Below, in pieces: positions 3,786-64,000 of a DNA stretch of 64,000 nucleotides (the first letter of the stretch is position 1; each line of letters starts with the position of its first letter). The translations under genes and the position numbers were made by a program. The DNA is from Alloascoidea hylecoeti (lineage: Eukaryota), in contig BCKZ01000021.1 of the NCBI GenBank assembly GCA_001600815.1, positions 186,001-250,000 of the forward strand, read 5' to 3'. The notes beneath the pieces were generated by a model, which was not told where the DNA came from, ran no database searches, and saw nothing but the letters and a program-made list of their open reading frames with translations.

Positions 3786-3892
3786 ATATATATGGGTATG
3801 AAGATTAAACTCGGTGATCACGTGACGTGGATTAATATATTAATTTTCACACACACACTCGTGAAAATACACATTTAGTAACGGTTACGACT

Positions 3893-4426
3893 ATGGGAGA
3901 GCCGATTAATGCCAACCCAACGGTGCTACAAGCATTACCTTCCAGATACGAGAGCAGGGAAGACGCGGGCGATGAAGAGATTGAGAGGTTACTCGGGCTG
4001 AGTGTTTTCCGGCGGGAGGAGGAGGAATCGGAAACCGAAGAGGAAGAAGAGATTGACCCGCAAGAGGTTTATGATCTGGTCAGTGGGATCAGCGATCCCG
4101 AGCACCCGCTGACACTGGGGCAGCTGGCAGTTGTGAGCCTGGAGGACATTGCAGTGAGCCATGGGCGGCGGAGGATGCGGGTTGCGGTTGAGATCACGCC
4201 CACGATCACGCACTGCTCGCTGGCCACGCTCATTGGGCTGGGGGTGCGGGTGCGACTGGAGCGCAGCCTGCCGGCGCGCGCCCACCCGGTGGTGGGGGTC
4301 AAGGCCGGGTCGCACGAGAGCGCGGGGGCGGTTACCCGGCAGCTGGGGGACAAGGAGCGGGTGCACGCGGCGTGCGAGAACGGGCAGCTGGCGGCCGTGA
4401 TTTCCAAGATGCTGGACGCCTGCTGA
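3893..4426 (+). CDS. CIA2: Cytosolic Fe-S assembly component Cia2 (MIP18/FAM96 family)
   Basis: Motifs ISDPEHPLTLGQL, EITPTITHCSLATLIGL and QLGDKERVHAACEN. Confidence 0.93.
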   Translation: MGEPINANPTVLQALPSRYESREDAGDEEIERLLGLSVFRREEEESETEEEEEIDPQEVYDLVSGISDPEHPLTLGQLAVVSLEDIAVSHGRRRMRVAVEITPTITHCSLATLIGLGVRVRLERSLPARAHPVVGVKAGSHESAGAVTRQLGDKERVHAACENGQLAAVISKMLDAC

Positions 4427-4529
4427 TTCGGGCTGACGGGCGGGTAACATTCTTTTCTGTAGCCTAATCATAACTTTAAATCCAGATTCACGACTGCACC
4501 GTATTAGGTTTGGCCAGATAGATGGGTAT

Positions 4530-7500
4530 ATGTATTTGTTGAGTATGCCAAACACCAACATGCCGACGGAGCCGCCACAGCCAGCCCCACCAGGGCCCCA
4601 GCCCCAGCACGGCCTCCCGCACGGCCCCCAGCACGGCCCCCAGCACGGCCCCCAGCCGAGGCTCGTCAAGAAGAAGTCCTTCTTCCAGACTCTGTCCTCG
4701 CGTTTCCAGAAGACGCCTGCCCCCGTCCCCCCCGTCCCGGCCCCCGTCCCCGTCCAGGTGCCCGTCCAGGTGCCCGTGCCGACCATCGCCCGGCTGCCCC
4801 ACTCCCACACCGCCCCCACCGGCCCAGCCTTCCTGACCTACTCGTCCCCCATGCACTCCGACCACAACGTCAGCTCCAACGTGTCTCTGAACACCAGTTG
4901 CAGCGCAGTCTCGCTTCCTGCAGGCCAGCTCCAGCTCCAGCTCCAGCTCCAAAACTCAACTTCAACGGCATCTTCACGAAACTCCAGCGGGAGACTGCGC
5001 ATGCATCGCCGTAAGGGGAGCGTTCTGGGGTTCGTCTTCGAAAGAGACACGGCCCACACCCCGAAAAAGAAACATTCACAGTCCGCCTATTCAAACCACC
5101 TGCCTGGTATGGATCCATCGCTGCAATATAACACCCAAAGCTCGTCTTCTTTTCAGACTCCAAAAACTCCAAATCTGTACTCAAGTGCCTCGTCTCAATA
5201 TCAGTCTCAGGATCTGTCTCAAGATCTGTCTCAAGATGATAGGTCGCGATCAAAATCCATAGCCTCGAGTTTCAGTATCGGTGAATCCAATGCCTTCGTT
5301 TTAAACATCGACAGTCACTCAACTACTTCTTCAACTTCAACCCAAACTAATCAGAAAATTAATTCAATTTTAAAAAAACCAAGATCAAAATCAATACAAA
5401 CTTTAAATCTAAAACAAAGCCCGTTATCTAATTCAATACATAATGTTATTGATAATAATATTATTGAATCTCCATCTTCATCTCCTTTAAGAACAAGACA
5501 CTACACTTTATCCGAAATCCCTGGTTTAAATTCAAAATTTAATTTTAATGATGATAATCATTTCATTAATAATATTGACGAATCTTCCCCAAAATATATT
5601 GATAATTCATCACCAAAATATATTGAAAAATCAAAATCAAAATCAATACCCATTAATTCTTATAATCCTAATAATAAAGATAAAAATGATGATTTTGTAC
5701 CAAAAAGTATAATTAAAAATCATTCCCATTCAAAATCTGAAACTTTTAAATCTTCAATGTATATTAATTCTTTATCTTCAGTTTCAAATCCTGAATTAAT
5801 AAATCTTTCAGATTCAAATGATAAATCAAACTCATTCGTTTCTTCAAATGAAAATCCTGGTAATGAAAATCCTGGTAATGAAAAACTTAATTTACCACAT
5901 TCAATACCAATGACAAAAACAATATCAAGTTTAACAACTGCAAGTAATAATACTGAATTAAGTTTTATTAATAGATATACTTCTTCAATTAATTCAACTG
6001 ATCAACTTCAAGAAAGTGAAATAAAAAAAAATGATTATAATTATATTCATAATCATAATCATAATCATAATCATAATCATAATCATAATCATAATCATGA
6101 AAATGAAAATGAAGAATTATTTTCATCGATACAAAGTTCTGAATCAAATGATACATTTAAAAGATATAATACTTTACAATCAACAATATCAACATCATTA
6201 TCAATTCATAATCTTGAATCAAATAATGTTAATAATAAAATTAAAATTGAAAATGATATAGGAACTGGGAAAATAAGATCAACTGAAATTGAAATGAAAA
6301 ATTCTTATCCAATGATAACTTCTGATTCTGATCCAGAGACTGCAATACCTTCAGAAAAAACAGTAGTAAGAAGAAGAAGAAATAGTAATGGTGATGGAAA
6401 TCATAGAGCTAAAATTGATAATAGACATTCTCGTTGTATTGATGGTTTTATTAAAACTCCAAATTCAAATGCAAGTACTCCAACTTCTGTTAGTATTGAA
6501 AATATTGATAATTATCATAATAAAGAACAATCTTTATTAGAATCAAATTCTTCAATTTCAATTTCAAATTCAATTTCAAATTCCATTTCAGATTCAATTT
6601 CAAATTCTGTTTCAAATTCAAATGATAATTATAATATTAATAACAACAACGAATCAATCACAACAAATTCAATAAAAACTGTTAAATCTGAACAAATTGA
6701 AATGATGTCTCATTTAAATACTTCTAAATCTGTTCCCTTACCATATGATTTTAATCCATTATCAACAAATTCAACAATTAATCAAAGATCATTATCATCT
6801 GAAATATTATCTGAAAGATCATCAAATGATATTAATGAAAAATTAAATTATCATAATAGAACAACAACATTAAATGATATTTTAATTAAAAAACAAAAAA
6901 CAAAAATTTTAGAAAATAATAAATTAAAATCAAGTCTTAAAAGATCAAAATCAACAAATTCAACAACAATTTCAACAACATCAAAATTTCATAGAAAATC
7001 AATTCATAATAATAATAATAAACAAAAGTCTTCAATTATAACAAAACCTCAATTACCAATAAAACATCCATTAGCAGTTAATTCAACAAATGGTACTAAT
7101 TCACCAAGTCGTAAAACTTCTTTAAGGAGAACTGTTAAAGATTTCCCATCTTTAATTGATACTGATTTAGCAAATTCAAATCAATTTATTTATGCTTCAA
7201 TGAAATCATCAAAATCAACTTTTGATTATTCAAGAATGGGTATGAATGATCCTCAACAAAAATCAAAGGATAAAATTAATAATGATAATGAAAAAGATTT
7301 AGAAAAAGATAAAAAATTTAGAGATAATCATAAAAATGGTAAAAATGGTAAAAATGGTAAAAAAATAAAAAGAGCTTTATCAACTTATTTTTTAAAAAAT
7401 ATTAATTTTGATTATAATGATCATGAAAATTCAATTAATAATAATAATGATGGAATACATCAAAATGTTACAATTGTTGATAATTCATCATCAACTACAA

Positions 7501-8381
7501 ATAATAATCATAATAATAATAAATCAAATCGTAGAATTCATCATAGATCAGCAAAATCATCATCATCACATAAATTATTATCATCAAATTCAATTTCAAA
7601 TTCTTTAATAAATCCAATTCCAAAAAAATATAAATTTACTTGTCCTGTACCATTAATTGGTACATCATTAATTGAAAGATCAAATTTCGAAAAAACTTTA
7701 ATTCCTTTTATTGTAACAAGATGTTTACAAGAAGTTGAAAAAAGAGGTTTTGATGAAGAAGGTATATATAGAAAATCTGGTAGAAAATTAGAAGTTGATG
7801 AAATTTTATGGTTTTTTGATAATCCAAAAAGATATTTATTACCTTCATCTTCATCTTCATCTTCATCCTTATCTTCAAATTTAACAACTACAACAAATAA
7901 TGAAAATTCAATAAAAGTTAATAATGAATCAATTGATGATTTATTTAATAGAATTGATATTAATTCAATTACTGGTGCATTAAAAGAATATTTAAGAAAA
8001 TTACCTGAACCATTAATAACATTTGATTTATATCAAGATTTTTTAAATGCTAGTAAAATTGGTTATGATTTACAACAAAATCAAGAAGATTTTACTGAAG
8101 AAGATGAATTAAAAGTTAAACAATTAAAAATTTCACATTTAAATCAATTAATTCATAAATTACCTTTATCACATTTATATTGTTTAAATTCAATTATTAA
8201 ACATTTAAATAAAATTGTTGAAAAAAGTGATTTAAATAGAATGACAAATAGAACTTTATCAATTATTTTTAGTCCAACTTTAGCTTGGGATAAAGAAAAA
8301 AAAATGGATATAATTGATTTACCTGGGAAAAGTATGGCTATTAATATAATGATTGAAAATAGTGATGAAATTTTTGGATAG
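4530..8381 (+). CDS. Rho GTPase-activating protein with a long S/N-rich disordered N-terminus and a C-terminal RhoGAP domain
   Basis: Motifs IPFIVTRCLQEVEKRGFDEEGIYRKSG (arginine finger), LKEYLRKLPEPLIT and NRMTNRTLSIIFSPTL. The start could be the ATG at 4530, 4545 or 4560. Confidence 0.88.
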   Translation: MYLLSMPNTNMPTEPPQPAPPGPQPQHGLPHGPQHGPQHGPQPRLVKKKSFFQTLSSRFQKTPAPVPPVPAPVPVQVPVQVPVPTIARLPHSHTAPTGPAFLTYSSPMHSDHNVSSNVSLNTSCSAVSLPAGQLQLQLQLQNSTSTASSRNSSGRLRMHRRKGSVLGFVFERDTAHTPKKKHSQSAYSNHLPGMDPSLQYNTQSSSSFQTPKTPNLYSSASSQYQSQDLSQDLSQDDRSRSKSIASSFSIGESNAFVLNIDSHSTTSSTSTQTNQKINSILKKPRSKSIQTLNLKQSPLSNSIHNVIDNNIIESPSSSPLRTRHYTLSEIPGLNSKFNFNDDNHFINNIDESSPKYIDNSSPKYIEKSKSKSIPINSYNPNNKDKNDDFVPKSIIKNHSHSKSETFKSSMYINSLSSVSNPELINLSDSNDKSNSFVSSNENPGNENPGNEKLNLPHSIPMTKTISSLTTASNNTELSFINRYTSSINSTDQLQESEIKKNDYNYIHNHNHNHNHNHNHNHNHENENEELFSSIQSSESNDTFKRYNTLQSTISTSLSIHNLESNNVNNKIKIENDIGTGKIRSTEIEMKNSYPMITSDSDPETAIPSEKTVVRRRRNSNGDGNHRAKIDNRHSRCIDGFIKTPNSNASTPTSVSIENIDNYHNKEQSLLESNSSISISNSISNSISDSISNSVSNSNDNYNINNNNESITTNSIKTVKSEQIEMMSHLNTSKSVPLPYDFNPLSTNSTINQRSLSSEILSERSSNDINEKLNYHNRTTTLNDILIKKQKTKILENNKLKSSLKRSKSTNSTTISTTSKFHRKSIHNNNNKQKSSIITKPQLPIKHPLAVNSTNGTNSPSRKTSLRRTVKDFPSLIDTDLANSNQFIYASMKSSKSTFDYSRMGMNDPQQKSKDKINNDNEKDLEKDKKFRDNHKNGKNGKNGKKIKRALSTYFLKNINFDYNDHENSINNNNDGIHQNVTIVDNSSSTTNNNHNNNKSNRRIHHRSAKSSSSHKLLSSNSISNSLINPIPKKYKFTCPVPLIGTSLIERSNFEKTLIPFIVTRCLQEVEKRGFDEEGIYRKSGRKLEVDEILWFFDNPKRYLLPSSSSSSSSLSSNLTTTTNNENSIKVNNESIDDLFNRIDINSITGALKEYLRKLPEPLITFDLYQDFLNASKIGYDLQQNQEDFTEEDELKVKQLKISHLNQLIHKLPLSHLYCLNSIIKHLNKIVEKSDLNRMTNRTLSIIFSPTLAWDKEKKMDIIDLPGKSMAINIMIENSDEIFG

Positions 8382-43893: not shown

Positions 43894-45150
43894 TTATTGA
43901 AACAATAAACTAGCTGCTAAGTCTGCATTTCCATCTGTTAATTGAAGTGCAACAAGTGCTTGATCACGGCTAAATCCTAAATTAGTTAACATTTTAATTT
44001 TATCTTCTGGGAAATCAGGCATCTGAGGAGCTGTTTTTGCCTTCTCTTCTTTTGGCTTTTCTTCCTTTTTCTTGTCTTCTTTTGGCTTTTCTTCTTTTGA
44101 CTTTTCTTCTTTTGGTTTTTCTGCTTTCGCAGGCTCATCAGAAGTTGAAGCAGTTGAACCTTGTTCTTCAAATGCATCTTTTGGTAGTTCAGATTCAGGT
44201 AAGAATGAAGTTTGTGATTCACCAAGTACTAAAATATTATTCTTCAAATCAATTATACCCTGATGACGTTTTAACATATCAAGACCTAATAATAAATCAA
44301 CACTTTGACCTTCAATAACAGTAAATGAACACGGTAAAAATGATGTACCAACTTTGATTGGAGCACTATGAATTCTACCTAAAATATTGGCAGTACCAAC
44401 ACCTTTTGCAACACCTTTAAATCGTTGATCTAAAAGTCTAAGAATTCCACATTTGTCAGCACATTCAGGGCTTATAATAGTTGCTTGAGCACCAGAATCA
44501 ACAAAAGCTTTGACGGCAAACCCATTAACTTCAACGTTAATATATAACATTGTGACTCTACCAAAAGCTTCTGGATTATGCTCCAAAGCATTTTCCAAAT
44601 TTTCAGCAATTTGCTCCTGTCTAATAATTTCTAAGATTCTCTTTTGATTGTCTTCATCGTCAGGATTTGTACTTAATTTTAATAATTCATCTTTAATAGC
44701 TCTATCCTGTTGTCTTCTCTCTTTATCAATTGCTAACATTTTATCTTTAAATTTGATTGGATCATTAATAACCGGAGTTAAATCGGGGTAGGCACCTAAT
44801 AATCGTTGTTTTAAATCATCATCGAGACTGATCTGCAGTCTTAATCTTTCAATTTCAGCTTCGAACGGATTCTCGGGTGGTGGAGGTGGTGAAGGTGGGG
44901 CAGGGTCTGCCACTGGCTTCTTTTTTTGCCTCCTTTCCACTATAATGAGTTCATCACCTTGGAATCCCCATTCATTTAATATTTTATCATCACCAACAAG
45001 TGGGTTTAATTGAAAGAAAATTATCATTTCATCAACTGGTATTCCGGTTTCGCATTCAATATATGCTTTGAAATCAGCTAATGTCATGGAAGTTGAAACT
45101 TCCAAGGAGATTAACTCCTTCAGGTTTTCGAGAGCTAAAGTAAGTCTCAT
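43894..45150 (-). CDS. DDI1: Ddi1 (UBL, helical domain, retroviral-type aspartic protease, UBA)
   Basis: Motifs MLYINVEVNG..VKAFVDSGAQATI, GVGTANILGRIH and DLLLGLDMLKRHQ. The C-terminal UBA is LTNLGFSRDQALVAL...NADLAASLLF. Confidence 0.95.
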   Translation of the reverse strand: MRLTLALENLKELISLEVSTSMTLADFKAYIECETGIPVDEMIIFFQLNPLVGDDKILNEWGFQGDELIIVERRQKKKPVADPAPPSPPPPPENPFEAEIERLRLQISLDDDLKQRLLGAYPDLTPVINDPIKFKDKMLAIDKERRQQDRAIKDELLKLSTNPDDEDNQKRILEIIRQEQIAENLENALEHNPEAFGRVTMLYINVEVNGFAVKAFVDSGAQATIISPECADKCGILRLLDQRFKGVAKGVGTANILGRIHSAPIKVGTSFLPCSFTVIEGQSVDLLLGLDMLKRHQGIIDLKNNILVLGESQTSFLPESELPKDAFEEQGSTASTSDEPAKAEKPKEEKSKEEKPKEDKKKEEKPKEEKAKTAPQMPDFPEDKIKMLTNLGFSRDQALVALQLTDGNADLAASLLFQ

Positions 45151-45686: not shown

Positions 45687-45759
45687 TGCCTCAAGTCGGA
45701 TTCGAACCAACGATCTTAACATTACTAGTGTTACGCCTTACCAACTTGGCCATCAAGGC
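45687..45759 (-). tRNA. tRNA-Thr(AGT)
   Basis: 73-nt cloverleaf with acceptor GCCTTGA/TTGAGGC, D-arm TGGCCAAGTTGGTAAGGC, anticodon arm TAACA-CTAGTAA-TGTTA and T-loop GGTTCGAATCC. A T5 Pol III terminator lies just downstream. Confidence 0.95.
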
Positions 45760-49748: not shown

Positions 49749-52700
49749 ATGATCCCTCAACCTCAGAATGGCAGGGCCCTTCCCCATAAAACAAAATCCA
49801 TCAAAGAATTAAGTCAGCTGGTGGATAAACTGCTAGCCGAGCTGTTCGATGCCAAAAGTACTTCAATAAACGATTATTTAAAAGCGACTGTTAATTGTAT
49901 GGAAGGTTACAAACAATCATTAAAAACCAAAGACTTGGAAAAATCTTATGTTAATTTCTTATCAATTTATAGTATAATCGGTGAAATAATACCTAAACAT
50001 CCGGATTTTGAAACGTTACAACAACTGCATCCAAAAACTTTTAGTCTTCATAGAGAATTTCTTAAGTTTATATCGGATGAATCCGATACCATTAAACGAA
50101 TCCAAAGTCAAATACGGATAGAAAGTGGCGAATTAGTGAAATCCCATAAAAAACAACAAAATACTAATTTGGAATCATCTATGAAAGGCTTATCACAGTT
50201 ACGAATACCCAACCAACAACCTTCATCATCACCTCTACAAAATGGTAGGGCCTCAAATTCATCACTATCTTTACAAAGTGGTAGGACTTCAATATCTTCC
50301 AACACTTCTACTCGTACACCTCCAGAGGATAACTCAATGCTTTACAAATTCAATCAAAAATCAATTGATCCCAAAACTTTAAATGAACTCTTAATAAAAT
50401 GTCCATCATCAATATTATTACTAGATATCCGAGAACGTTCAGCTTTCAATAAACTACATATTTCAATAAAAAACATTGTTTGTATTGAACCTGTTTCCGC
50501 AAGACCAAATATGACAGATCAAGCATTACAAGAATCTTTATGTATAGCTCCAGAACATGAACAACAATTATTTATGAATCGTCAAAATTTTGATTTAATT
50601 ATCATTTGTGATTATGAATCTGAAGAATTAAGAGTAAATGGTCCTGCAACTGCTGCTTCATATAATTCACAAATTAATTTAAAATCAGATTCTCCTGAAC
50701 AACTAGCAGCAATGAGAAATGTTTTCAAATCATTATCTGAATTTGCATTTAGTAAACCTTTAAAAAACAGTGTTTGTTTACTTGATGGTGGTATAAGAGC
50801 ATGGAAAGAAAAAATTGGCAATTCAAAATTAATTGGTAGTGCTCCTAATGGTTATAATTTGCCACAAAGAAGATCATCTAAATTATTTAATAGTAATGAT
50901 CCAAAATCAGTCACTTTACCATCTGTTATTCCAACTACAAATACTGATCCTGGTACTCCAAAACAATTAAGTGGGAATCCTAATTATGTTCGAAATGTAG
51001 ATGATTATTTTAGACAATTACCTGCTGGTTCTAAAAATGAAGAATTTGATTATTTACAATGGCAACAGCAACAATCTAATAATCATAATAATAGCAAAAG
51101 TCATGAAAGACGATCGAGCGTTAATATCTCTCATTTATCCAATTCATTCGATTCAATAAAACAACATAGTAGGAGTAATTCCTCAATATCTTTTAAAAAT
51201 ATTATACCATCATCCTTTTCAAACTCAAATCAACCAACGTCATTTCCACAATCTTCCTCTTCGTCATTTTCTAATTCAAATTCAAATCATAACTCCAATT
51301 CTGGATTAAATTCTAATTTCAATTTCAATTTCAATTCTAATTCTAATTCTAACTCTAATTCAAATTCATCATCATTAAATAAATTAAATTATCCTAAATT
51401 GTCAATTAGGACCCCAGAAGTTTTAGCGCCACCACCTGTTGTTCATTCACCAGCTATCGTTTCAGCACCACCTCCAATTCCTGAACTCCCGCCATATTCT
51501 GTTTTACATCCTCCACCACAACAACAACCTTCAATGATAAAAAATCGTGTTTCTTCTTTTGAACAACAACAACCACAAACAATGCAACAGTTACAACAAC
51601 AGGAATTAAAAAATATGCGTGCAAATGGTTTAGGGATTACTAATCGTAAAACAAAAGAAGAATTCACAACAGGTTTAAGAAATTTAGGAAATACTTGTTA
51701 TATGAATAGTGTTATACAATGTATTGCTGGAACACCTGATTTAATACGATATTTTCTTGATGGTTCATATCATCATCATATTAATGTACAAAGTAAATTA
51801 GGTCATAAAGGTGCTTTAGCTCAAAGTTTTGCAAAATTAATTTCTGAATTATATAAAAATGATAAAGGTTATATTGATGCTATACAACTAAAGACTCTAA
51901 GTGGGAAGATTCGAGATGAATTCAGTGGTACTGAGCAACAAGATACTGTTGATTTTTTAACTTTTTTATTAGATGGATTACATGAAGATTTAAATGAATG
52001 TGGAGGAGCAAAATATATTAATTTAACAGTTGAACAAGAAAGAGCAAGAGAATTAATGTCAGTTAGACAAGCTTCTTCAATTGAGTGGGAAAGATATTTA
52101 AAAACAGATTTTTCAATAATTTCTGATGTTTGGCAAGGTCAATATCAAAGTAAATTAGAATGTTTAACATGTGGTAATACATCAACTACTTATAATGCTT
52201 TTTCAACTTTAACTTTACCATTACCACCAAATAAATCTAAAGTTTCTTTAGAAGAATGTTTTGAATATTTTTTAAAAGGTGAGATTTTAGATAATGATGA
52301 TAGATGGAAATGTACAAAATGTAAAACTTATCGGAAAACTTCTAAAAAATTAACAATATCAAGATTACCACAAATTTTAGTTATTCATTTTAAACGTTTT
52401 AAATCTGATAATAATATAAGTGGTTCTTTTAAAAATTTTAAAAAATTAGAAACATTTGTTACTTATCCCCAAGAAAGTATTCTTGATCTTACAAGGTTCT
52501 GGCCACCATATCTTACAAATGATAGAAATGTATTGGCTAATGTACCAATAAGAGGACAAATCCCTCCTTTTAAATATCAATTATATGGTGTTGTTAATCA
52601 TTATGGTTCATTAGGTGGTGGTCATTATACCAGTTTTGTTAGAAGAGGAAAATTAGGTTGGTGTTATTTTGATGATGCGAAAGTTACCACACATCGAACA

Positions 52701-52760
52701 TCAGGGATAGTTAATCAAAATGCTTATGTGTTATTCTTCAGAAGGGTAGAAGTTAAATAA
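49749..52760 (+). CDS. DOA4: Ubiquitin-specific protease of the Doa4/USP8 type (N-terminal helical domain, rhodanese domain, USP domain)
   Basis: Rhodanese LLLDIRER...LLDGGIRAW, Cys box GLRNLGNTCYMNS, QQD..DFL, and His box HYGSLGGGHY. Confidence 0.85.
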   Translation: MIPQPQNGRALPHKTKSIKELSQLVDKLLAELFDAKSTSINDYLKATVNCMEGYKQSLKTKDLEKSYVNFLSIYSIIGEIIPKHPDFETLQQLHPKTFSLHREFLKFISDESDTIKRIQSQIRIESGELVKSHKKQQNTNLESSMKGLSQLRIPNQQPSSSPLQNGRASNSSLSLQSGRTSISSNTSTRTPPEDNSMLYKFNQKSIDPKTLNELLIKCPSSILLLDIRERSAFNKLHISIKNIVCIEPVSARPNMTDQALQESLCIAPEHEQQLFMNRQNFDLIIICDYESEELRVNGPATAASYNSQINLKSDSPEQLAAMRNVFKSLSEFAFSKPLKNSVCLLDGGIRAWKEKIGNSKLIGSAPNGYNLPQRRSSKLFNSNDPKSVTLPSVIPTTNTDPGTPKQLSGNPNYVRNVDDYFRQLPAGSKNEEFDYLQWQQQQSNNHNNSKSHERRSSVNISHLSNSFDSIKQHSRSNSSISFKNIIPSSFSNSNQPTSFPQSSSSSFSNSNSNHNSNSGLNSNFNFNFNSNSNSNSNSNSSSLNKLNYPKLSIRTPEVLAPPPVVHSPAIVSAPPPIPELPPYSVLHPPPQQQPSMIKNRVSSFEQQQPQTMQQLQQQELKNMRANGLGITNRKTKEEFTTGLRNLGNTCYMNSVIQCIAGTPDLIRYFLDGSYHHHINVQSKLGHKGALAQSFAKLISELYKNDKGYIDAIQLKTLSGKIRDEFSGTEQQDTVDFLTFLLDGLHEDLNECGGAKYINLTVEQERARELMSVRQASSIEWERYLKTDFSIISDVWQGQYQSKLECLTCGNTSTTYNAFSTLTLPLPPNKSKVSLEECFEYFLKGEILDNDDRWKCTKCKTYRKTSKKLTISRLPQILVIHFKRFKSDNNISGSFKNFKKLETFVTYPQESILDLTRFWPPYLTNDRNVLANVPIRGQIPPFKYQLYGVVNHYGSLGGGHYTSFVRRGKLGWCYFDDAKVTTHRTSGIVNQNAYVLFFRRVEVK

Positions 52761-54859
52761 ATTATTGAAGATGTACCATATATATACTTAGATTATTGTA
52801 TCTAAACATTAAAAAAGGTTCATGGACAACTACGGCCGAGCCAAGGTCAAACTGGCGCTTTACTTTCGGGTCACCATTTCACATAATTAATTATAAGGTG
52901 GCAAGATTATAAGTAGTTACTGAGTACTCTATGAAGACTTATAATTAGGATTTTCTTATAGTTTATAATGTTCCGTAAATTCTAGATATTCTAATTGTAC
53001 TACATAGGCCATGTGAAATAACATATTATGTCTAGTATTCATAATTAGTATCAGCACCCTTAACGTCATAAACGGCAGTTACTCTGAGTATTATGAACCC
53101 CAACCACTCTTTATGATGTAGTACGACCATTATTCCAAATTCCAATCCATGAATCTATATCATAAAGACTTACAGACCCATACTTTCTTTTGTTATAAAT
53201 GTTTTTTGGCTCGAAGGCCGGGCCTGATTCTCGTGCACATAGACCCAGTCTAATGTACTGTACGTGCTTCCCCAGACCCGGATCCTATAGCGACCTACCG
53301 AACGACCGAACATCCGTTACTGAATCCAACACCATCCCAAACGTCCATTCCAATTTATCTTAAGACCGTATCATTCTGTTTCTTTGGTTCCTTGCGTTAA
53401 TATTCTTAAAAGGCCTTTTGCATTCCAAGCATATTCAATATTCATGCTTTTTAAGAAGGGTTCTTAGGGTGAGTCTTTTGAATGGAACCCGAAATTAATG
53501 TGCTAGTTTAATCGGATTAAATTGCAGGAAGTGACGAATGATATTATTCAGCATACCAAATATGGGTGTTTTCAGAAACGAAATATGTAAAGACGGAATG
53601 ACGAAATACTTTTTAGATAGAAGACCTAATATTTAATACAATCTCCAAATTTAAAGTCACCAAACTATATTGTAGCTGGGTAACTAACTTTTATCACTCC
53701 ATTAGCAAATGTATTATCTCACAAGATGGTTTTAACTACTTTTACGTGAATGACGAAAATGAAATTAAATAACAATCTTTAACGCACAAGCAACATACTA
53801 TTAATTTCACACATAATAGCGCAACCACACCTACACACTTGCTGAATATTAGGTCGATAAATAAGACATGCGTACAACGAAAGTTACTAAAGAAAATTAA
53901 CGAAGTAAGTTTTTTACCCAGCAACTAATTATTAATTTATTATAATGTGCTGAATATACCCATGATAAGATGACTAAACCTTCCCATCAATATAGCGAAT
54001 TTGAATCTGTTCCAAAATTTGATGAATGATATTCATCTGACTTCTGAATTATAGGTGAAGTTCCCAGAACTTTCCTCATAAAAAATAGTTACATTCGCTT
54101 AAAGTTACTATAAGTTTAATGGCTATTCCGCTAGAAATAGCTATACATTAAATAGTTACATAACAAATTAGCTAGTTAGAAACAATATAAAAGGAGAACA
54201 AAATTTATATTATAAATTTTATAAATTTTGTTCTCCACTGAATCATCTTGATATCCTTTTACAAAAGATTTACTACTACTTAAAACTATATTACAACTTC
54301 TGGTTTTATTGATAAGATATTTCTTTGAAATCACCCATTTCAACTGATATTTTACCCCAGATTCACACCGAAAACAAATCCACCAAATAAGATTAAAAAG
54401 CAGATCTCATGATGTAATTGAGGACTCCACATTAGGCCCCGCATCGGGGAGAATTTTTGTCCTCGCCAAGATTTGCAGCTCGACCCGCTGTTTCGGAGAG
54501 CTTGCTAGTTATTTCTACTCTTATTTTAAAAAAAATTTAATTTTGTTTTTTCACGAAGTTCATCGCAGCGGTTTACTATAATTAGAACTATTTAATACCT
54601 ATAATACCTAATAACTATTCATTGAAGTGTAATGATATACTATTATCCTATTACAATAATTTGCGTTAATTTGGCGACTATTCGCATATATTTGAGAAGA
54701 TATTCCCCCACAGTTTAAATTAATAATTCAACCACATGATGTAATATTATTAGACCAGCTCCTCAAATACGAGCGAATATGTTTCAATCTATAAAGGTCT
54801 TCTCCACATCTCCGAACACTACAGTGAAGCGGAAGGAAACATAGAATCTATGATACAGA

Positions 54860-55293
54860 AATGGATGCAATCGTTTCACATATGAAGGCTAAACAAATTC
54901 AAGAGAGCATTGGATAACCTGTCTCTTCAATCAAAATTTGATGAATTACTTATCTTTTAAAACTATCCATTAAAGTCACTTGTCTTCCAATATTCCCCCG
55001 AATTTGCAATTAATCGTTTAGCCTTCGTATGTAAAAAGATCGAGTTCTGTATCATAGATTATATGTTTCCTTTCAAGATGCCTTATTAACTGACTAGTGA
55101 CACTTCCCTTAGTATTTAATGATTTATGCTGCTCGTTACACCCTTCAACGAGGCAATCCACTTGTTGTGCTGTAGCATTGTAATCGAAGAAATAGCAACA
55201 ATCACTTGTGAGGTTCGGGTTCGAAATTGTAGAAGCCTTTAGTTTAGGAAGTTCTATACCATCCAAGGTATATGATTCTGTTGAACTGTTCAT
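54860..55293 (-). mobile_element. hAT-type transposase 5' relic with BED zinc finger
   Basis: CCYFFDY...VDCLVEGC...GSVTSQLIRHLERKH fits the BED pattern (aromatic, C..C, TS.L.RHL...H). It is followed out of frame by RQVTLMDSF, and the remainder is decayed. Confidence 0.65.
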
Positions 55294-55429
55294 TAACTGG
55301 TGTAAACAATGAAATGTGATGAGAGAAAAAATTTAATTATAAGGGGAATTTATTTCTATTTAAACATATTACAATTAGCTATAGTCCTACGAAAGCTCTT
55401 AAAACTATAATATTCTATAAAATAGCATA

Positions 55430-55860
55430 ATAAGAAGATGTGCTACTGATGATACTGATAGTGTTGAAACTTCTAATTTTGTTTCTGAAGAAAATGATCC
55501 TGAAAATGATGTTGATTCATCTACCAACAATTTTAATTTGACAGCTTCAGAATCCTCGCTTAATTTATCCAGACAAAATACAAACTAGATCCAGATATTG
55601 ATTCAAATTTTGATACTGTTGAGTCAGAATTAGAGACTGAAGTTAATACAGAAGTAGATGCTGAAAGATTTCAATTAGTACCTAAAAATATATTATCTTA
55701 TGACGAAGAAAAAGAAATCAACAGCCTGAAACTTTTAATAAAACTGATTTTGATGCAGCTCATTAAATAAAGAAGGAAAAATAGAATATGGCCAATGAAG
55801 AAGAACTAAATTCTTTGCTCGATAAGGATGTTTATGAGGACATGAAATTTAGGCCAGATC
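55430..55860 (+). mobile_element. Ty1/copia pol relic (acidic linker and start of RT)
   Basis: An acidic S/E/D-rich linker is followed by ANEEELNSLLDKDVYE at about 55791-55838, matching the copia RT-start motif A...EL.SL....V/TW. Confidence 0.5.
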
Positions 55861-58800
55861 AAATTCTAAACACATAAATCAAGATTAAGAGATCAAAATT
55901 AAGCTAAGCCGAAGTAGAGGAGTTACAACATCACTTGCCGCACATATTCATTATCTGAAATTTAGAAAATGATAACGACAATATTTATTTCTTCAAATAT
56001 TCTTACTAATTATATCCACTTTGACATATAGCCCTTATGAACTTTTTTAGTACGAAGTTTATAATAAGATCTGGTAGGTAAATTTTCACCGGGAATCTGA
56101 ATGAAAATTTCTTCCTACAAAGAAAATTTTAAATAAGCAATTGTAAAATCAGCGCTAAATGTCAGATAAAGAATAGGTTCAGCAAATAATAGTATAAGAC
56201 GAATTGTGATATGATACCATGGCAGTATCAAACACGTCTCTACTCTAAGTTTACAATTAGCGAATTAAGTTTACTGTTGCAACATTTACTAACTACGGTA
56301 GAATGTAATTTGGGTCTAAATCCCACGAATTTCTGAAGCTTCAAGAATATGTTAAGCAGAATATGTACAAGAAGCGTCGACTATGGTAATGCTTTAGAAT
56401 TATCTTTACCAAGAGTTAAGTCCTTACATAGCTATAAAATCAGCTAGAATCATATAAGCTGGGCCTCGAGTCAAATGCATAACACTTACAATTTAACACA
56501 ATATATATAAAGAATAAATTTCACAGTCCATTTAAAAATAATTGGAACAGTACTGATGAGAGTATTAATCTGAAATAAAATGAATAAAATATTCAAAGAA
56601 AAAAGTGTTCGGAGAGGATTAACAATATATTTATCTTCACTATCAGTGATAACTAGGTGAGGCCAAATTAATTCCTACTGTGCTAAAACCACCGAATTCT
56701 TCCCTATAACCAGCCGAATTCACAGTGGAAAAGCTATATATTCTGAAAAAAAAGGAATAGATAAACCTGTATTTTATTTATGTATTAATATTATTAGTAG
56801 ATTATAGTTGAAGATCTATACCTACTACTTACCTATAAGCTTAAGTATAGATCTATATAGTTAATACCTTGCTTAAAGTGTACGAATTTTAATTATCAGT
56901 TACAATAATATTGATGTATTTGCAGATATTCATTAATTATATATTGAATCTGCGAAAATTTATTTAAGCTTAATAGTGTGTTTCAGACCCCACGCTCATC
57001 TGTTTTATTGAGCTCGAGTACTAGTTCTTAGTAACTTCTTACTCTTTTAAGTATAGTTTCTCTTGAACCCCCACCATGGATTAATATATATATATAAGTA
57101 CTATATATTTGGTGCTTTTTATCATTATTTTGCAATTGTTGAAAATCGGATGATCACATTGGTGTGAAATACATTCAAATAATAATAGGAAAAAAGTCTA
57201 AAATATAGAAAACTTCTATGAAAGGATAGGATCAAGCCATTATGCACATAATACATATCAAGTCTGTAATGAAACTCACACGTGCTGTTCCATTAAAAAT
57301 TCATAACCATGGCTAATATTAATGGATTTTCTAAGATACTTATAGTAATGATCAAGATTCAAGAGACATGATCATTTGCATGATCTTCAATGAATAGTTA
57401 AAATTTTATAATCAACGATTACTCTTGCCTACCAGACATAAACTACGTACACTATAGCCAGATAGCGAGATGGAGCAATACTATCTAGTTGCTCTTTTTT
57501 AATATTAATTAATATCATATAAGCTTATATAGTTACTATCATAAAATTGAATGAGATATAGGTATAACCTTATATGATATGTGTCATTCATCTTAATTAA
57601 CGGTATATGTAGAATCATTGTAGATCAATTATCTATTATAAACATATTTACCATGAAATTATGTTGATCTTTATTAAAGATATCGCGATAACATTCAATC
57701 TTAAATAAGTTTTAATTTCTGTTAATCAAATTTGTTAAAGCAGTAAAATATTTTCAATGTTTGCTTTCGTTTAAAATTACACGAGCCAATAGTGTCACTC
57801 AGGTATTAATTATGTCATTTGTAAATCAATTCCAACATCACTAATAAATTTATTGCTATGCAATCACAAATGATTTTATTATTCCTTTGCTTGTGACTTT
57901 AGCTATAAACATATAGGAATTGAAACTTAGCACTCAAAATCTCAGATATCCGATAATTGATATTTCAAACAATCACCAGTAATAAGTTCAACCAAAAATC
58001 TACAGAAACTACAATAGTATATTGAACTATAGTTAAAATAATGTTATCAAACAATTGCAATTGTAATTACACACGTTAACGTTGGCAACAGATATAGTAT
58101 ATCATGTAAAGTAGTAAAGAATTTCTCTTTTAATTCTTACGATAATCAGTTAGCATAGTAGAACTTTTTAAGTGACATGTCGATCTTTGTTTTATTTTAT
58201 TTGATCATGATGCTTTAAGATTATATGTTTGCTTATTGCAGTTATGAGTCTTATGACACATTTCTTCTAGTATCACAACTTGATTATGATATCAATCATT
58301 TTTTATTAATTAGAAATTAAGCAGTTGAAGTTTTTCAATTCTTGAGCCGCCATAATAGCTAGAATTTAAGTGAAACAATAGCTAGAATACTTTTTTTTCG
58401 TTTGTATTAACTCATGAATCTTATAAAATTAGTAAGATTCCTTTATGTGAGACTATGCATATAAATAATATGGAATCATGCATTGCATATGCATGAAGAA
58501 AACCCGATCATGACCTTCTCTCTTTTCTATTTTATTTGATAATCAAGGCTTAAGGCTTAAAGCTTCATTAGTATATTATAATATACATGAAGATATAAAA
58601 AGTTTCAATTACAAATATTATTTGCAAACATCATGATCATTCCTACTCAATAAAGCTCTTTCATGATCCATCATTAGCAGTAATTAAGTATTATAACTAG
58701 CTACTAATGCAATAGTTCCCTATATATTAATATCATGATCATGATGAGAAAGTTAACCAGACTTAAAATTATGAGAATAGCTCCAGTTTATCTTTATAAT

Positions 58801-60758
58801 TATTTATAGACGTATTCTATTTTACTTAGACCCCTTGCAATACAATAGTTTTAGATCTGCAAATTGTAATTCAATCTCATAACCGAGCCAACCCCCCTCC
58901 ATAATCCCTACTGAAAAGGTGAAAAATGACGTTAAGTAGTCATTTAATTTGACTTCTTCGAGGCCCTTTTTGTATTACAAGTTTGAGGCATGTAAATTAC
59001 TGTTTCTATAGGGGCCACCTTTCCAAAATTAAAACGTTCTTTGTAATCCTTGTATGATTGTGATTTTTATTCATAAAATTATGTGTAGAACATATTTGAA
59101 TGCTAACGAAGACAAAAGGACACGAAACCAGAGAAACGTTAGATTAGGACCGTTGCCTAGATGAGATATAATGTTACAATTTATGGCTAGAAGCCTAGTA
59201 GAAGGTGCTGGCTCATGACAGATACACTTAAGCTGGCAACCAATTGCAAGCAATAAGAAATCTGCCCATCAACTCAATGAATCATTGATATGCATAAATG
59301 CATATAACAGAGCCGAACTAAAACAAGTTTAAAATATAAATTTATACCATAAATTTGAAAATTCAAATCATTTTATATCTCGTTTAATAATCAAACATTG
59401 TATACGTACCACGAATTCGAATTCCGAGGTTAATTGATAACGTAGTCTATAGATATAAATAGTATTAGATACCAAAACAAAATAGAAGTAACGTTCCCTT
59501 TTAAATATATAAAGTAAAGTAAAAACATCATGATCAACCAGATAGAGGAATCTATCGATATACCTGTTCAACTCAATTTAAAATCCTTACTTGAAACCAA
59601 ATCATTGCAATCGTAAATGTAATTATTGAAACTGTAATTGTTGTTAACTTTGTAGAAAAAACATAATTATATATGAATAAGTTTAAATGAGTGTTTAATT
59701 GTTTATCCCAATTCAATTGAAATCAATTTAAAAAACTAAACTAAAAGAGTATTTTGATCATATCATAAGTTATAGTCAAGTAATGATATCAGTCAATATA
59801 AATACTTAAAATCTCATTTTAATAAATAAGTAAGTGATAGAAAATTCAAATTTGTAACGAGTGTTAATAAAAAGCAAAACAAAAATAAACAAAAAGAAAT
59901 AGAAAATTAATAAAAATAGTTTAAAACAATATATAATATGTAACATTTTCATCAAATATAAAAAATACCCCAGCCTAGTCTTATTTTTCACCTCTTTGCA
60001 TTTACCATAATTGTATTCCAAAAGAAAAAAGTAAATTCTAAAAATCTTTCCTTTATTTTACTTTATTTTGTTTTATCTTTATCCTTAATTTTTTTTTTTT
60101 TTTTTTATAATAATACCTATTTTGTTGTTATTCTGTCCATCAAAATTATCACTTATACCACGAATAAAATAAAAAAAAGAAAAAATATCAAACAACACAT
60201 AGTTAATATTTTTTTAATCAAACCCAAAAACAATGTCTTAATCAAAGAAGTTTCCTTTTCCTTGTATGATCTTTCATATAGGAAATATCGTAAAACCATA
60301 CAGCAAAGAAATTGAAGAGACATCAAATGGTACCATAATTAAAAATCATAATATTAAAATATTGTTTTTTTTTTTTTTTTCCCTTTTCCTTTTGTGTTTT
60401 TGTAATTGTAATAAAAAGTTTCTAAATTTAGAAAAGAAAAAAGAAAAAAAAGAAAAAAGTAAACAGTATATTTCATAAAATAAATCACAACAACAAAATA
60501 TTTATTTATATTTTTTATAATATTTTTGGGGTTCATAACAATAATATCATGTAATGTAAATTCAAATTCAATTCCAAGAAAAGAAGAATCGAAAAGAAAA
60601 GAAAAAAATAGAAAAATTCAAAGAAAAAATTCAAAAAGAAATTCAAAAAAAATAATAATAATAATCATCAATAATAAACATTCATTCATTCAATCATAGC
60701 TTTAAAAAAAATAATTAAGCCTTTTAGTTTAAGTTTTAGTTTTAGTTTAAGTTTAGGT

Positions 60759-62558
60759 TTAACTTAATATTGTCTTTTTTTTAGAAAATAAACCCATAAT
60801 TGATTGAAAAGCACTTGATGGTGGTTGTTGTTGTAAACCTCTAGGTATTGGTTCAGGTTTTGTTATAGTTAAACCTTGATTGGCAAGTTTTATAGAACCT
60901 TCAGAGAAACCAATATTTGTACCAGTACCATATAAAGTTGTATTATCACTACCACTATTACTTCTATAACGTTGACTTTCTTTTTGTTGTTGTTGTTGTT
61001 GATGATGTTGTTGTAATTGTTGTTGATAAGATTCAATTGGAATTTTATGTTGATAATTTGAATATAAATATTCAGATTCGTTTGGAATTAAATATTGATT
61101 TCCATTTGAATCTAATTGAAATTGATCATTATTTAAATCCATATCTTGATCTTGATCATATTGTATATCTTCATCATTTTCTTCTAAAATTTCATCTTCA
61201 GTTAAAAATTTAGAAATACTATCACCAATTTTAACAATTTTTTTTTTAAATTCAATTGAACCATCAAATCTTTCAAAAGTATCTAAACCAATTGAAACAT
61301 CAACAGGACTTAAATTTTCATCAACATTTAAAGATAATGGCATAAAACAATTACCAATTTTTGAAGGAACACTCCAAATTTTTCCTAAAATTATTTCACC
61401 ACCAATTTCTTTAACTTTTGTATCAATTAAATTATTAATATTACATTTTGTTGCACATTCAGGAGATATAGAAGTTAATAAATTTGAAGTATTTACAACG
61501 GCTTTAACTTTAACACCATTTATTTCAATAGCAATATATAAAGCAACGATTTTTTTTGGCATATTTTCCAAAGAAGTATTTAAGTTTTCAGCAATTATAT
61601 CTTGTTTTATAAATTCTAAAATTTTATTTTGATTTGATTGATTATAAGGATTATTATTTAATCTTAAAATTTCTTTTTGAATTTGCTGTTTTTGTTTTCT
61701 TCTTTTTTTATCATTTTCAATCATTGCAGATCTAAATAATAAAGGGTCGTTTATGATTGTTTTTAGAAAAGGATAAGCACCAAATAATTGTTCGGATAAA
61801 GTTGGATCTAATTTTGTTTGAAGTCTAAATCTTTCAATTTCTCCTTCTAATTGGTTTTCGGGTGTTGTTGACATTTGCAGTTGGTTCTGGCTTTGAATTT
61901 GCATCTGTTTTTGTGATTGATATTGCTTCTCTTTTTCCTTTTGTTTTTCTTTCTCTTTCTGTAGAAATCTTTGAACGGTTTCCTGATCGACGTAGTCAAA
62001 TCTTTTCTGGGAGCTGAAATTAGAGTTTGTCATTTTGGATAGGGTATCTAGGGATTTTGGAGATAAGGAGTTCTTGGGCAAAGAGCCTCTGGGGGGAGCA
62101 CCTCTGGGGGCGGTCTTTTTGGGCTGGGGCGGCGGGAAATACCCCGAGGCACGTGCGGACTCCTTGCTCAGCCGGATGGCCTCCTGCAAATCCTTATCGA
62201 ACTGGGCGGCCGGATCTTCTTGCGGCGGAGTAGGGGGGACTTGGGATCGGCGGCGGGACCGTGTTCGGGAGCGCCGTGGGTTGGCCCGCGAGGACGCGCG
62301 GGGGGTGGCGACGGCCGCCGGCCCCTCCGCGGGGGAGACGGGCTTCCTTTCGACTTGTATGATATCGTCGTCGTGCAGATCCCAGGACCTCAGCTTGATG
62401 CGGTCGCCCGCCATGGCCTCGTTTTCGAACAGCAGCAGCATTTTGTCTGGGGGCACGCCCGTCTCGGAGTGGGCGAAGGCCTTGAGGTCGGCCAGGGACA
62501 TGTAGCCGGACACCTCGATGGGGATGATGTCATCGCCGTGGAACAAAGTGAGTCTCAT
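60759..62558 (-). CDS. Ddi1 paralog with a degenerate protease site (UBL, UIM-like helix, helical domain, pseudo-RVP; no UBA)
   Basis: Collinear with DDI1 at MRLTL...LADLKAF...ETG, EIERFRLQ, IIAENL, LYIAIEING and SPECA.KC. It has VNTSN in place of VDSGA. Confidence 0.85.
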   Translation of the reverse strand: MRLTLFHGDDIIPIEVSGYMSLADLKAFAHSETGVPPDKMLLLFENEAMAGDRIKLRSWDLHDDDIIQVERKPVSPAEGPAAVATPRASSRANPRRSRTRSRRRSQVPPTPPQEDPAAQFDKDLQEAIRLSKESARASGYFPPPQPKKTAPRGAPPRGSLPKNSLSPKSLDTLSKMTNSNFSSQKRFDYVDQETVQRFLQKEKEKQKEKEKQYQSQKQMQIQSQNQLQMSTTPENQLEGEIERFRLQTKLDPTLSEQLFGAYPFLKTIINDPLLFRSAMIENDKKRRKQKQQIQKEILRLNNNPYNQSNQNKILEFIKQDIIAENLNTSLENMPKKIVALYIAIEINGVKVKAVVNTSNLLTSISPECATKCNINNLIDTKVKEIGGEIILGKIWSVPSKIGNCFMPLSLNVDENLSPVDVSIGLDTFERFDGSIEFKKKIVKIGDSISKFLTEDEILEENDEDIQYDQDQDMDLNNDQFQLDSNGNQYLIPNESEYLYSNYQHKIPIESYQQQLQQHHQQQQQQKESQRYRSNSGSDNTTLYGTGTNIGFSEGSIKLANQGLTITKPEPIPRGLQQQPPSSAFQSIMGLFSKKKTILS

Positions 62559-62679
62559 ATTTAACAGCGAGCAAAAGTGAGGTTGGAGGTGGAGTTAGTG
62601 CCTGCTTATATACTCTACACCCGCACACCCACACACCCCTACTTAAACCCTGCCGGCACGATCGCAGCTCCCACCAGCA

Positions 62680-63360
62680 ATGCTCGAGTCCCTCTCCCTC
62701 GCCGTGTCGGCCTCGCTGCCCCACGTCTTCGTCCGCCCCCTCGGACCACGCGACCTGCCGCAGTGCGTGGCCCTGGAACAGCTGGCCTTCCCCCCCAACG
62801 AGCGGGCCACAGAGCAGAAGATCGCGTACAGGCTGCGTGTGTGTCCAGAACTAACGGCCGGCATCTTCCTACGAACTTTCTCCTTCGCCTCCAACGAATC
62901 CTCCTCCTCGCAACTGGAGGACTCGGAATTCTCCTCGCAAATCGACGAGGATAAATTCGGTCCTTCCAAGGTCATAACCGACGAAAAACTGATTGCCCAT
63001 ATCCACGCAACGAAAATAAAGTCTCAAACTGTAACTGCTGAAACTATGGATATACCAGTTCTGGATTCTTGGGGTCGTAAAGTATCCTCTTCAAACATCG
63101 GCCATTCAGAAGATGGTATAAATGTTGCTCTACATTCTTTAGCTGTTCATCCGGATTATAGAAATCAATCTTTAGGTTCCTTACTATTAACTGATTATAT
63201 CCAAAGATTATCCAATTTAAAAGTAGCTGCGAAAATCGTTATTATTGCTCATGAAGAATTGGTATCTTATTATACAAGATTAGGCTTTGTGGACTACGGT
63301 CTTAGTGAATGTAACTGGGGTGGTGTTAAATGGCATGATTTGGCTATCTCTCTAACTTAA
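62680..63360 (+). CDS. PAA1: Polyamine N-acetyltransferase (GNAT)
   Basis: Motifs LEQLAFPPNERA...YRLRVCPEL..G.F.R, HSLAVHPDYRNQSLG and IAHEELVSYYTRLGF. Confidence 0.85.
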   Translation: MLESLSLAVSASLPHVFVRPLGPRDLPQCVALEQLAFPPNERATEQKIAYRLRVCPELTAGIFLRTFSFASNESSSSQLEDSEFSSQIDEDKFGPSKVITDEKLIAHIHATKIKSQTVTAETMDIPVLDSWGRKVSSSNIGHSEDGINVALHSLAVHPDYRNQSLGSLLLTDYIQRLSNLKVAAKIVIIAHEELVSYYTRLGFVDYGLSECNWGGVKWHDLAISLT

Positions 63361-63499
63361 CTTGATCTTTTACTTACATGTATATTAATTATGATACAAT
63401 TGAATTTTAATATAATCGACATGTGTACTTGTACATATGCATGTAAATAATTATTAAATTAATTTTATACAATTAATCACAATGACATTCAAGAATTTA

Positions 63500-64000
63500 T
63501 TATACATTTTCTTTGTTATCTTCTTCTTTATCTTCTTCTTCAGATGATTCTTTATCAATCATTGGCTTTTTTTTAGATGGTGTTAAATATTCCCAGATTT
63601 TCTTTGAAGTTCCCCAAAATCCTCCTTGATATTTACCACCTGAATTCTCAACTTCATTATCATCATCTCTTGATTTTGAAGTTGAACTTCTTGTTGATTT
63701 TGATTTTGATTTTGATTTTGGTGTACTTGCTATATCTTGATCAATATCAAGTTCATATTGTATATTCCCATTATAATTTGGTGTTCTTCTATTTTTATTT
63801 TTATTTTTATTTTTATTTTTATTTTTATTTTTATTTGCTGATTGGTATTGTATGGGATATTTAAATTTAAAATTAAATTCACCGTTATCATTATCAATAT
63901 CATTATCATTATCATTATCAATATCATTATTAATATCATTGTCATTAGCATCACTATTTTTTGTTTTTGTTTTTGTTCTTTTTATTGAAATGTTAACATT
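63500..64000 (-). CDS. 3' end of a low-complexity protein that continues beyond the window
   Basis: An open minus-strand frame of 167 codons runs from 64000 to the TAA at 63500-63502. It contains (ND)n, (NK)n and (KS)n tracts and ends GGFWGTSKKIWEYLTPSKKKPMIDKESSEEEDKEEDNKENV*. Confidence 0.7.
   Translation of the reverse strand, partial: NVNISIKRTKTKTKNSDANDNDINNDIDNDNDNDIDNDNGEFNFKFKYPIQYQSANKNKNKNKNKNKNKNRRTPNYNGNIQYELDIDQDIASTPKSKSKSKSTRSSTSKSRDDDNEVENSGGKYQGGFWGTSKKIWEYLTPSKKKPMIDKESSEEEDKEEDNKENV

Follow-up and report, generated by a model that had tools for sequence, protein, structure and literature searches.

An intact Ddi1 paralog without the catalytic aspartate, 16 kb from DDI1 in Alloascoidea hylecoeti: a probable selected pseudoprotease

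Ddi1/Vsm1 of yeasts and DDI2 of mammals are ubiquitin-dependent, retropepsin-like proteases with the domain order UBL, HDD and RVP, to which a UBA or a UIM is added. A retropepsin active site needs one Asp per chain, and a mixed dimer with a single Asp is inactive; dead forms of DDI2 in which the Asp is changed to Asn are known. We analysed a stretch of 64,000 nucleotides from Alloascoidea hylecoeti (positions 186,001 to 250,000 of contig BCKZ01000021.1, forward strand, assembly GCA_001600815.1), called the window below, in which two genes of this family lie on the minus strand 15.6 kb apart. One is the canonical DDI1, with protein P0002. The other, with protein P0001, is an intact, full-length copy of Ddi1 that has no catalytic Asp. 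Both were read under the standard code:

60759..62558, minus strand: dead Ddi1 paralog P0001, intact open reading frame (ORF) of 599 amino acids, stop codon included
43894..45150, minus strand: canonical DDI1 (P0002), 418 amino acids, UBL-HDD-RVP-UBA with DSGA at the active site

P0001 is homologous to Ddi1 and DDI2 and resembles them in domain order (UBL, HDD, RVP), in fold, and in having the GLD motif and grip hydroxyl in place. Unlike them, it has lost the Asp, Gly and Ala of the active site, four residues of the flap and the UBA, and it carries a 3-residue deletion at strand 1 of the RVP, a conserved new C-terminal motif and two long disordered inserts. It is a Ddi1 family member by descent that lacks the defining features of an active peptidase. 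No natural dead Ddi1 paralog is described in the titles and abstract openings of those papers that our literature searches listed, among which NRIP3 (below) comes nearest. The engineered D220A form of Ddi1 in S. cerevisiae has likewise lost the catalytic Asp in a folded protein (PMC12909987); in contrast to D220A, the remodelling in the paralog extends to its entire active-site loop and flap and was then conserved. With such remodelling, P0001 probably does not work as a plain substrate trap, clamping a chain in its groove. NRIP3 and NRIP2 we take to be small proteins with a Ddi1-type RVP, NRIP3 being without UBL or HDD. In vertebrates, NRIP3 is reported as a second protein that associates with DDI1, as judged by co-immunoprecipitation, in a paper whose text has 0 occurrences of the words "aspartyl" and "retroviral" (PMC7445249). 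Dead duplicates that act with a live paralog are reported for FLIP(L) with caspase-8, for prozyme with AdoMetDC, and for the iRhoms and Derlins among rhomboids (PMC7586951, PMC5201418, PMC13277793). P0001 resembles these as a dead duplicate that appears to have been retained by selection, here near the live gene. It differs from them in that a retropepsin site is shared by both chains, so that a mixed dimer can only lose activity and not gain it.

The open frame is not an accident of composition: the chance of 600 codons free of stops at the base composition of the ORF is 6e-19, and 34 and 57 stops interrupt the two alternative frames of the same strand at this locus. BLASTP aligned P0001 to P0002 with 45% identity over the HDD and RVP (residues 239-457 against 98-322) and with 42% identity over the UBLs. 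The translation and the alignment together confirm the full-length, 599-residue paralog 16 kb from canonical DDI1 that had been reported in the initial annotation. We also considered alternative decoding of CUG. All eight CTG codons of P0001 fall within residues 22-227 and none lies in the part that encodes the HDD, the RVP and the tail; at codons 22, 42, 56 and 61, Leu, Ile or Val dominates in 59 homologs, and the standard code therefore fits P0001.

We searched for relatives of P0001 exhaustively with HMMER among 1.84 billion representatives, which yielded 1092 proteins at E<=0.001, and examined the best 150 of the 1092. The top match was P0003, an open protein of 514 residues (E 7.7e-81) that spans P0001 residues 2-461 and has the same domain order; the second was the window's own DDI1. 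The two elements of the dead site in P0001 are as follows:

61482..61493, minus strand: dead active-site loop N356-T-S-N359, replacing D-S-G-A of DDI1
61386..61418, minus strand: degenerate flap, residues 381-391, shortened

Alignment and ORF arithmetic agree that the VDSGA of DDI1 (Asp codon 44497-44499) has become VNTSN in the paralog (Asn codon 61491-61493), as first annotated. In P0003 the loop reads S-T-S-D, with Ser in place of the Asp. Within the family set of 151 sequences (the P0001 query and the best 150 matches), D[ST]GA is present in 146 and DCGA in two more, and P0001 and P0003 are the only ones without Asp in every RVP domain. Between the conserved Asp and Gly, the flap is 12 residues long in P0001, 10 in P0003 and 16 in DDI1, which upholds the earlier description of a shortened flap; the two short flaps, with four and six residues fewer than that of DDI1, are dissimilar to each other. 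Four residues of the flap motif G-x-A-x-G-V-G (G246, A248, G250 and V251) are gone from both orthologs. The Gly and Ala of DSGA and the His of GRIH are also replaced in both, and no acidic residue of the loop is conserved between them. The hydroxyl residue of the fireman's grip is Thr in P0001 and P0003 alike, and GLD is kept. P0001 thus has neither the catalytic D-[ST]-G-A nor a full-length flap. A different arrangement was seen in P0096, a Ddi1-family protein of 519 residues with tandem RVPs, the first with VGSGA (Asp replaced by Gly) and the second with IDSAS; its sequence would fit a pseudo-dimer, fused into one chain, in which no more than one Asp is left.

Despite the dead site, the domains around it are recognizable. 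P0001 divides into the following parts:

62343..62558, minus strand: UBL, residues 1-72, encoded in GC-rich DNA and 42% identical to the DDI1 UBL
61866..62342, minus strand: linker 1, residues 73-231, Pro/Arg/Ala-rich and then Lys/Gln-rich, mostly disordered and poorly conserved
62148..62213, minus strand: UIM-like helix (predicted), residues 116-137, specific to this species
61569..61865, minus strand: HDD, residues 232-330, matching the yeast Ddi1 HDD chain 5kes_A (E 2.3e-5)
61179..61568, minus strand: RVP (retropepsin-like), residues 331-460, Pfam PF09668 at 66.7 bits (cut-off 26)
60813..61178, minus strand: linker 2, residues 461-582, acidic, Gln/Asn-rich and disordered, an expansion specific to this species
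60762..60812, minus strand: C-terminal motif AFQSIMGLFSKKKTILS, residues 583-599, a short hydrophobic helix and then a cluster of Lys

The Ddi1-type Asp_protease domain of Pfam scores 66.7 bits in P0001 against 174.2 in P0002. An AlphaFold2 model of residues 232-470, built on a 60-row alignment, has a mean predicted local distance difference test score (pLDDT) of 91.3. When this model was compared with the PDB using Foldseek, the best matches were RVPs, namely those of DDI2 and DDI1 from human and of Ddi1 from yeast and protozoa (4rgh, 7efy, 2i1a, 3s8i and 5ys4), with E from about 1e-13 to 7e-12, TMt 0.85-0.93 and root-mean-square deviations of 1.4-2.8. The helices of the HDD are predicted with block pLDDT 86-97, and I322 retains the Ile of the "AID" in yeast Ddi1, to which it aligns, and is probably the counterpart of I183 in PMC12909987. 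The N-terminal domain is ubiquitin-like: it scores 21.9 bits with the Pfam ubiquitin model (E 1.5e-4), below the cut-off of 25.4, is modelled with block pLDDT 97 over residues 1-70, and matches ubiquitin chains in the PDB.

Outside these domains the initial annotation held only in part. It had described a UIM-like helix inserted after the UBL and an acidic, Gln-rich tail in place of the UBA, and both the stretch FDKDLQEAIRLSKES and the tail FQSIMGLFSKKKTILS are indeed found in the protein. A helix is predicted at residues 116-137 (block pLDDT 63-82 in the full-length model), but Pfam reports no UIM match in P0001 even at E<=10, nothing similar aligns with it in P0003, and by eye only the core L-x-x-A-x-x-x-S of what we take to be the UIM consensus can be seen. 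The UBA is missing as described, Pfam placing one in DDI1 (E 2.3e-7) and none in P0001. The acidic, Gln-rich tail is present in P0001 but missing from the ortholog, and only its last 17 residues are conserved. The remainder of linker 1 contains long stretches with pLDDT <50, disorder at residues 144-170 and a predicted helix at 192-225, and pLDDT is <50 over residues 465-579 of linker 2. The last 19 residues of P0001 are predicted to form two short helices (581-588 and 593-598, pLDDT about 70); the corresponding end of P0003, KFQSIMGMFSKKKTIVG, is identical at 13 of 17 positions, and the motif is present in only two of the 154 fetched proteins, P0001 and P0003. As candidates only, we note that the tail may be compared with patterns that we take to be those of an Atg8-binding F-x-x-I, a degenerate PCNA box Q-x-x-M-x-x-F, or a membrane-binding amphipathic helix. 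Long low-complexity runs of Asn, Ser and Gln also occur in several other proteins of the window (the UBP protein at 49749-52760, for example with NSNSNSNS, and the protein at 4530-8381), and the expansions in the paralog therefore seem to be part of a genome-wide habit.

The identity between P0001 and P0003 follows the domains. The UBL has 35/72 identical positions, the HDD 57/99, the RVP 60/126 and the tail 13/17, against 29/145 in linker 1 and 5/19 in linker 2, where 103 of the 122 residues stand opposite gaps in P0003. For the four conserved modules taken together, 165/314 positions are identical, compared with 34/164 in the linkers (Fisher p 9e-12). A 3-residue deletion just before RVP strand 1 is common to the two proteins. 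Word-index protein searches with P0001, whole or as residues 236-462, gave no match, and the same search with P0003 residues 255-514 returned only P0003 itself and three distant Ddi1 proteins. A metagenome scan with the alignment of the two orthologs returned 173 stretches, the single confirmed one (L001) being a bacterial ATPase with nothing but the pattern in common.

As a further check on selection, we asked which residues the two orthologs keep of those conserved in at least 85% of 58 canonical Ddi1 proteins. There are 57 such positions, 5 of them in the UBA, which is absent here, and 52 in the HDD and RVP. Both orthologs keep 20 of the 52, one of them keeps a further 13, and 19 are lost from both. 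Clusters of these lost positions lie where the RVP begins, in the active-site loop and flap, and at the GRIH turn, and at 11 of the 19 the two proteins carry an identical new residue (in DDI1 numbering A188S, E194K, V199I, M201A, S219T, G220S, Q222L, R243K, R259K, H261W and L302F), which argues for change on a common stem followed by conservation. In a tree of 32 rows, from which rows of <330 amino acids were left out except P0004, the DDI1 ortholog of a related species, P0001 and P0003 form a clade with support 100/100, within a larger clade of P0001, P0003, DDI1 and P0004 with support 100/99; the pairing of DDI1 with P0004 is weak (86/30). A quick tree of 46 rows agrees; both are to be read with the odd amino-acid composition of P0001 and P0003 in mind. 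The dead clade has a stem of 0.96, against 0.07 for the DDI1 pair, tips of 0.66-0.70 against 0.12-0.25, and a tip-to-tip path of 1.36 against 0.37. By these lengths the paralog changed in a burst and is still evolving about 3.6 times faster than DDI1. The record of P0004 ends early and has a 20-residue insert right after DSGAQATI that the window's DDI1 does not have, which suggests that an intron was read through or that the gene model is broken.

The two DDI1 orthologs, P0002 and P0004, are only 72-73% identical (P0004 is not necessarily from the species of P0003), and for that reason silent sites between the two lineages are presumably saturated; an unselected copy, we infer, would not have stayed open in both. 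These observations point to an old local duplication of DDI1, before the split from at least one other sequenced species, whose product has been kept by selection. Cross-species constraint is seen in the form of one ortholog, the domain-structured identity and the 11 shared derived residues. The earlier proposal of an intact, selected pseudoenzyme that keeps its fold agrees with this domain-concentrated conservation and with an open ortholog that has Ser for Asp, and we consider it very probable that P0001 is a selected pseudoprotease.

A further check is the presence of the same sequence in other data. Six of the ten sequencing runs listed hold the paralog stretch or part of it, and four of the ten hold at least half of its sampled words. 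We compared the contigs of four runs (X3, X4, X5 and X6) with the window at the paralog locus. In X4, which is from the same organism but another study, two contigs cover 60699-62672 with 0 differing letters. In X3, a wood-decay metagenome that is a possible source, 60699-60968 and 61028-62649 are covered with 0 other letters; one contig omits a single base at 62648, upstream of the ORF, and no base is omitted inside it. The contigs of X5 and X6 span only short parts of the stretch. The Asn codon is reproducible, although X4 may be the same strain sequenced again.

Several explanations other than a selected pseudoprotease have to be weighed. That an assembly or sequencing artefact produced the Asn codon or the long frame is hardly conceivable. 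Nothing was found in its favor except that the contigs of other runs break near 61943-61956, at a GC island described below, and because the X4 and X3 contigs differ nowhere in the ORF and P0003 is likewise without Asp, the paralog is not a sequencing error. The initial annotation had named Asp-retaining orthologs beforehand as the sign of such an error, and the sole ortholog found has Ser. It is also very improbable that P0001 is still an active protease with a non-canonical catalytic arrangement. The fold and the groove scaffold are kept, and P0003 does have an Asp three residues downstream in STSD, but NTSN and STSD share no acidic residue, replacement extends to the Gly and Ala of DSGA, to the flap and to the His of GRIH, and the single change D220A is reported to abolish cleavage by Ddi1 in S. 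cerevisiae (PMC12909987). A decaying, functionless duplicate that has yet to gain a stop codon deserves more attention. It would account for the long stem and tips of the dead pair relative to DDI1, for the large species-specific expansions of low complexity, and for a GC content at third codon positions (GC3) of 0.00-0.12 in the 3' two thirds of the gene, which gives no sign of codon selection. Yet stops arise at about 0.09 per codon, and the long frames have stayed open in two species; conservation by domain (p 9e-12), the 11 shared derived residues and the 13/17 identity of the tail are likewise difficult to reconcile with decay, which we regard as improbable.

The more substantial alternative concerns what a selected P0001 does. 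The initial annotation had proposed that it heterodimerises with Ddi1; in that case the dead RVP would pair with the RVP of Ddi1 in a mixed dimer that is inactive or retargeted, and the paralog would be a titratable inhibitor or a localiser of Ddi1. We modelled one pair, made up of residues 186-326 of DDI1 and 327-462 of P0001. It reached a median ipSAE of 0.83, and the best of three controls 0.00, with contact agreement of at least 84% between runs and partner pLDDT of at least 83. Strand 1, the active-site loop and the GLD helix with the strand after it make up the predicted interface, as they do in Ddi1 dimers. In calibration, 51 of 78 solved complexes reached the ipSAE mark and so did 2 of 108 mismatched pairs, while close cousins of the true partner passed 10 of 12 times. 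Since Ddi1 RVP homodimers are among the solved structures and close relatives usually pass, the pair may have passed by likeness. The proposal thus survives as far as the modelled RVP pair goes, but the model does not discriminate a heterodimer from a homodimer. Other observations in its favor are the kept grip Thr and GLD, the distance of 16 kb between the genes, and the reports that heteromers often persist after duplication of a homomer (PMC11066126), that dead paralogs do pair with live ones, as prozyme and FLIP(L) do (PMC5201418, PMC7586951), and that human NRIP3 co-immunoprecipitates with DDI1 (PMC7445249). The Thr or Ser of D-T/S-G-A is described as essential for retropepsin dimer formation, with Thr giving tighter dimers than Ser in the HIV-1 and AMV proteases and with the flaps of Ddi proteins not contributing to dimerisation (PMC7072860); Thr in both orthologs fits a domain kept for pairing and not for cutting. 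Against heterodimers stand the changes at the interface: 8 of its 14 conserved positions are altered in both orthologs, compared with 11 of 38 elsewhere (Fisher p 0.10, not significant), and together with the 3-residue deletion by strand 1 they would be just as compatible with a P0001 that is insulated from Ddi1. The cost of a constitutive poison subunit is a further objection, and simple inhibition needs no conserved C-terminal motif. On balance, action of P0001 mainly by pairing with Ddi1 is possible but unlikely. A narrower version, in which one-Asp heterodimers with Ddi1 are carried by the C-terminal motif to a membrane or partner and P0001 is a poison or targeting subunit, we consider rather doubtful.

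The mechanism that we favor, although tentatively and at somewhat less than even chances, is that P0001 acts mainly as its own dimer, as an adaptor. In the copy left by the probable local duplication of DDI1, the catalytic Asp, flap and UBA are gone, the UBL, the HDD and a foldable RVP are kept, and a C-terminal hydrophobic-plus-Lys motif has been gained and conserved. The HDD-RVP core of Ddi1 is reported to bind mono-ubiquitin, the HDD being required, and its atypical UBL also binds ubiquitin (PMC12909987). P0001 keeps the UBL and HDD and drops the Asp, flap and UBA, and it is for this reason that we tentatively read it as a non-cutting binder of ubiquitin conjugates. It would neither cut nor clamp a substrate chain; as a non-catalytic dimer it would bind ubiquitin conjugates through the UBL and HDD, and the C-terminal motif would dock it to a partner or surface beyond the reach of Ddi1. 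It could then compete with Ddi1 for polyubiquitinated clients, or reroute them, without processing them.

A number of points weigh against selection and the adaptor mechanism. In the libraries searched, the dead-paralog family has two members, and its conservation thus rests on two sequences. Their faster evolution relative to DDI1 suggests relaxed constraint. None of the six runs that hold the paralog stretch is on record as RNA. Binding of ubiquitin by the UBL and HDD of P0001 is assumed from homology, and a role as a ubiquitin receptor is weakened by the loss of the UBA and by the UIM-like helix not being conserved. Finally, the modelled pair shows a predicted Ddi1-like dimer surface on the RVP of P0001, with no preference for Ddi1 over self.

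How Ddi1 and DDI2 recognise and cut polyubiquitinated proteins, and what they do without catalysis, are active questions. The paralog would be a natural separation-of-function allele in which the UBL, HDD and dimer scaffold were kept long after the Asp, flap and UBA were lost; it could show which parts of Ddi1 matter without catalysis, and it is a candidate endogenous competitor or inhibitor of Ddi1. With two sequences known, the clade is small, and its value lies in mechanism and not in breadth. If P0001 were a poison or targeting subunit, Ddi1 activity would have a genetically encoded switch, and retropepsin-type dimers would have their first described case of a natural dead subunit.

The surroundings of the gene include a possible promoter element and a region of unusual composition:

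62605..62612, minus strand: putative TATA-like box TATATAAG, recognized by sequence reading, 47-54 nucleotides 5' of the paralog ATG
61951..63050, no strand: GC island, up to 69% GC in a window of 31% GC, over the 5' ends of the paralog and a divergent GNAT gene

The TATA-like box sits in the 121-bp intergenic region between the paralog and the divergent GNAT gene. For the Rpn4 PACE motif, with the consensus that we take it to have, there is no exact copy, and there are 11 one-mismatch matches against 8.9 expected, none of them in the promoters of the paralog or DDI1. Rfam gave no match within 52000-64000. Positions 31408-52760 contain genes of the COX15, DDI1, GDI and UBP families as identified by Pfam, and a tRNA-Thr(AGT) gene lies at 45687-45759, just upstream of DDI1. 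This gene order resembles what is presumably the COX15/DDI1/UBP5/GDI1 neighbourhood of S. cerevisiae chromosome V. The 8 kb from the UBP gene to the paralog (52761-60758) contain only two ORFs of at least 70 amino acids (55018-55293 and 60266-60478), no Rfam match and only short repeats, an unusual emptiness in a yeast; the stretch could harbor genes that are rich in introns or decayed, or some structural element.

GC3 in the paralog falls from 0.88 in codons 1-50 to 0.00-0.12 in codons 251-600. A drop from about 0.9 to about 0.02 within a single ORF is seen in the RhoGAP gene at 4530-8381, the paralog and the GNAT gene at 62680-63360, and a second GC island (3851-5200, up to 73% GC) likewise lies over the 5' end of a gene. 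A recombination hotspot with GC-biased gene conversion is one possible cause of the islands; in S. cerevisiae, GC3 peaks have been linked to hot spots (PMC2997560). The GC island takes in the UIM-like stretch of P0001, in a part of the linker that is dominated by GC-rich codons, and this bias is also reflected in the linker's amino acids, with Pro, Ala, Arg and Gly favored.

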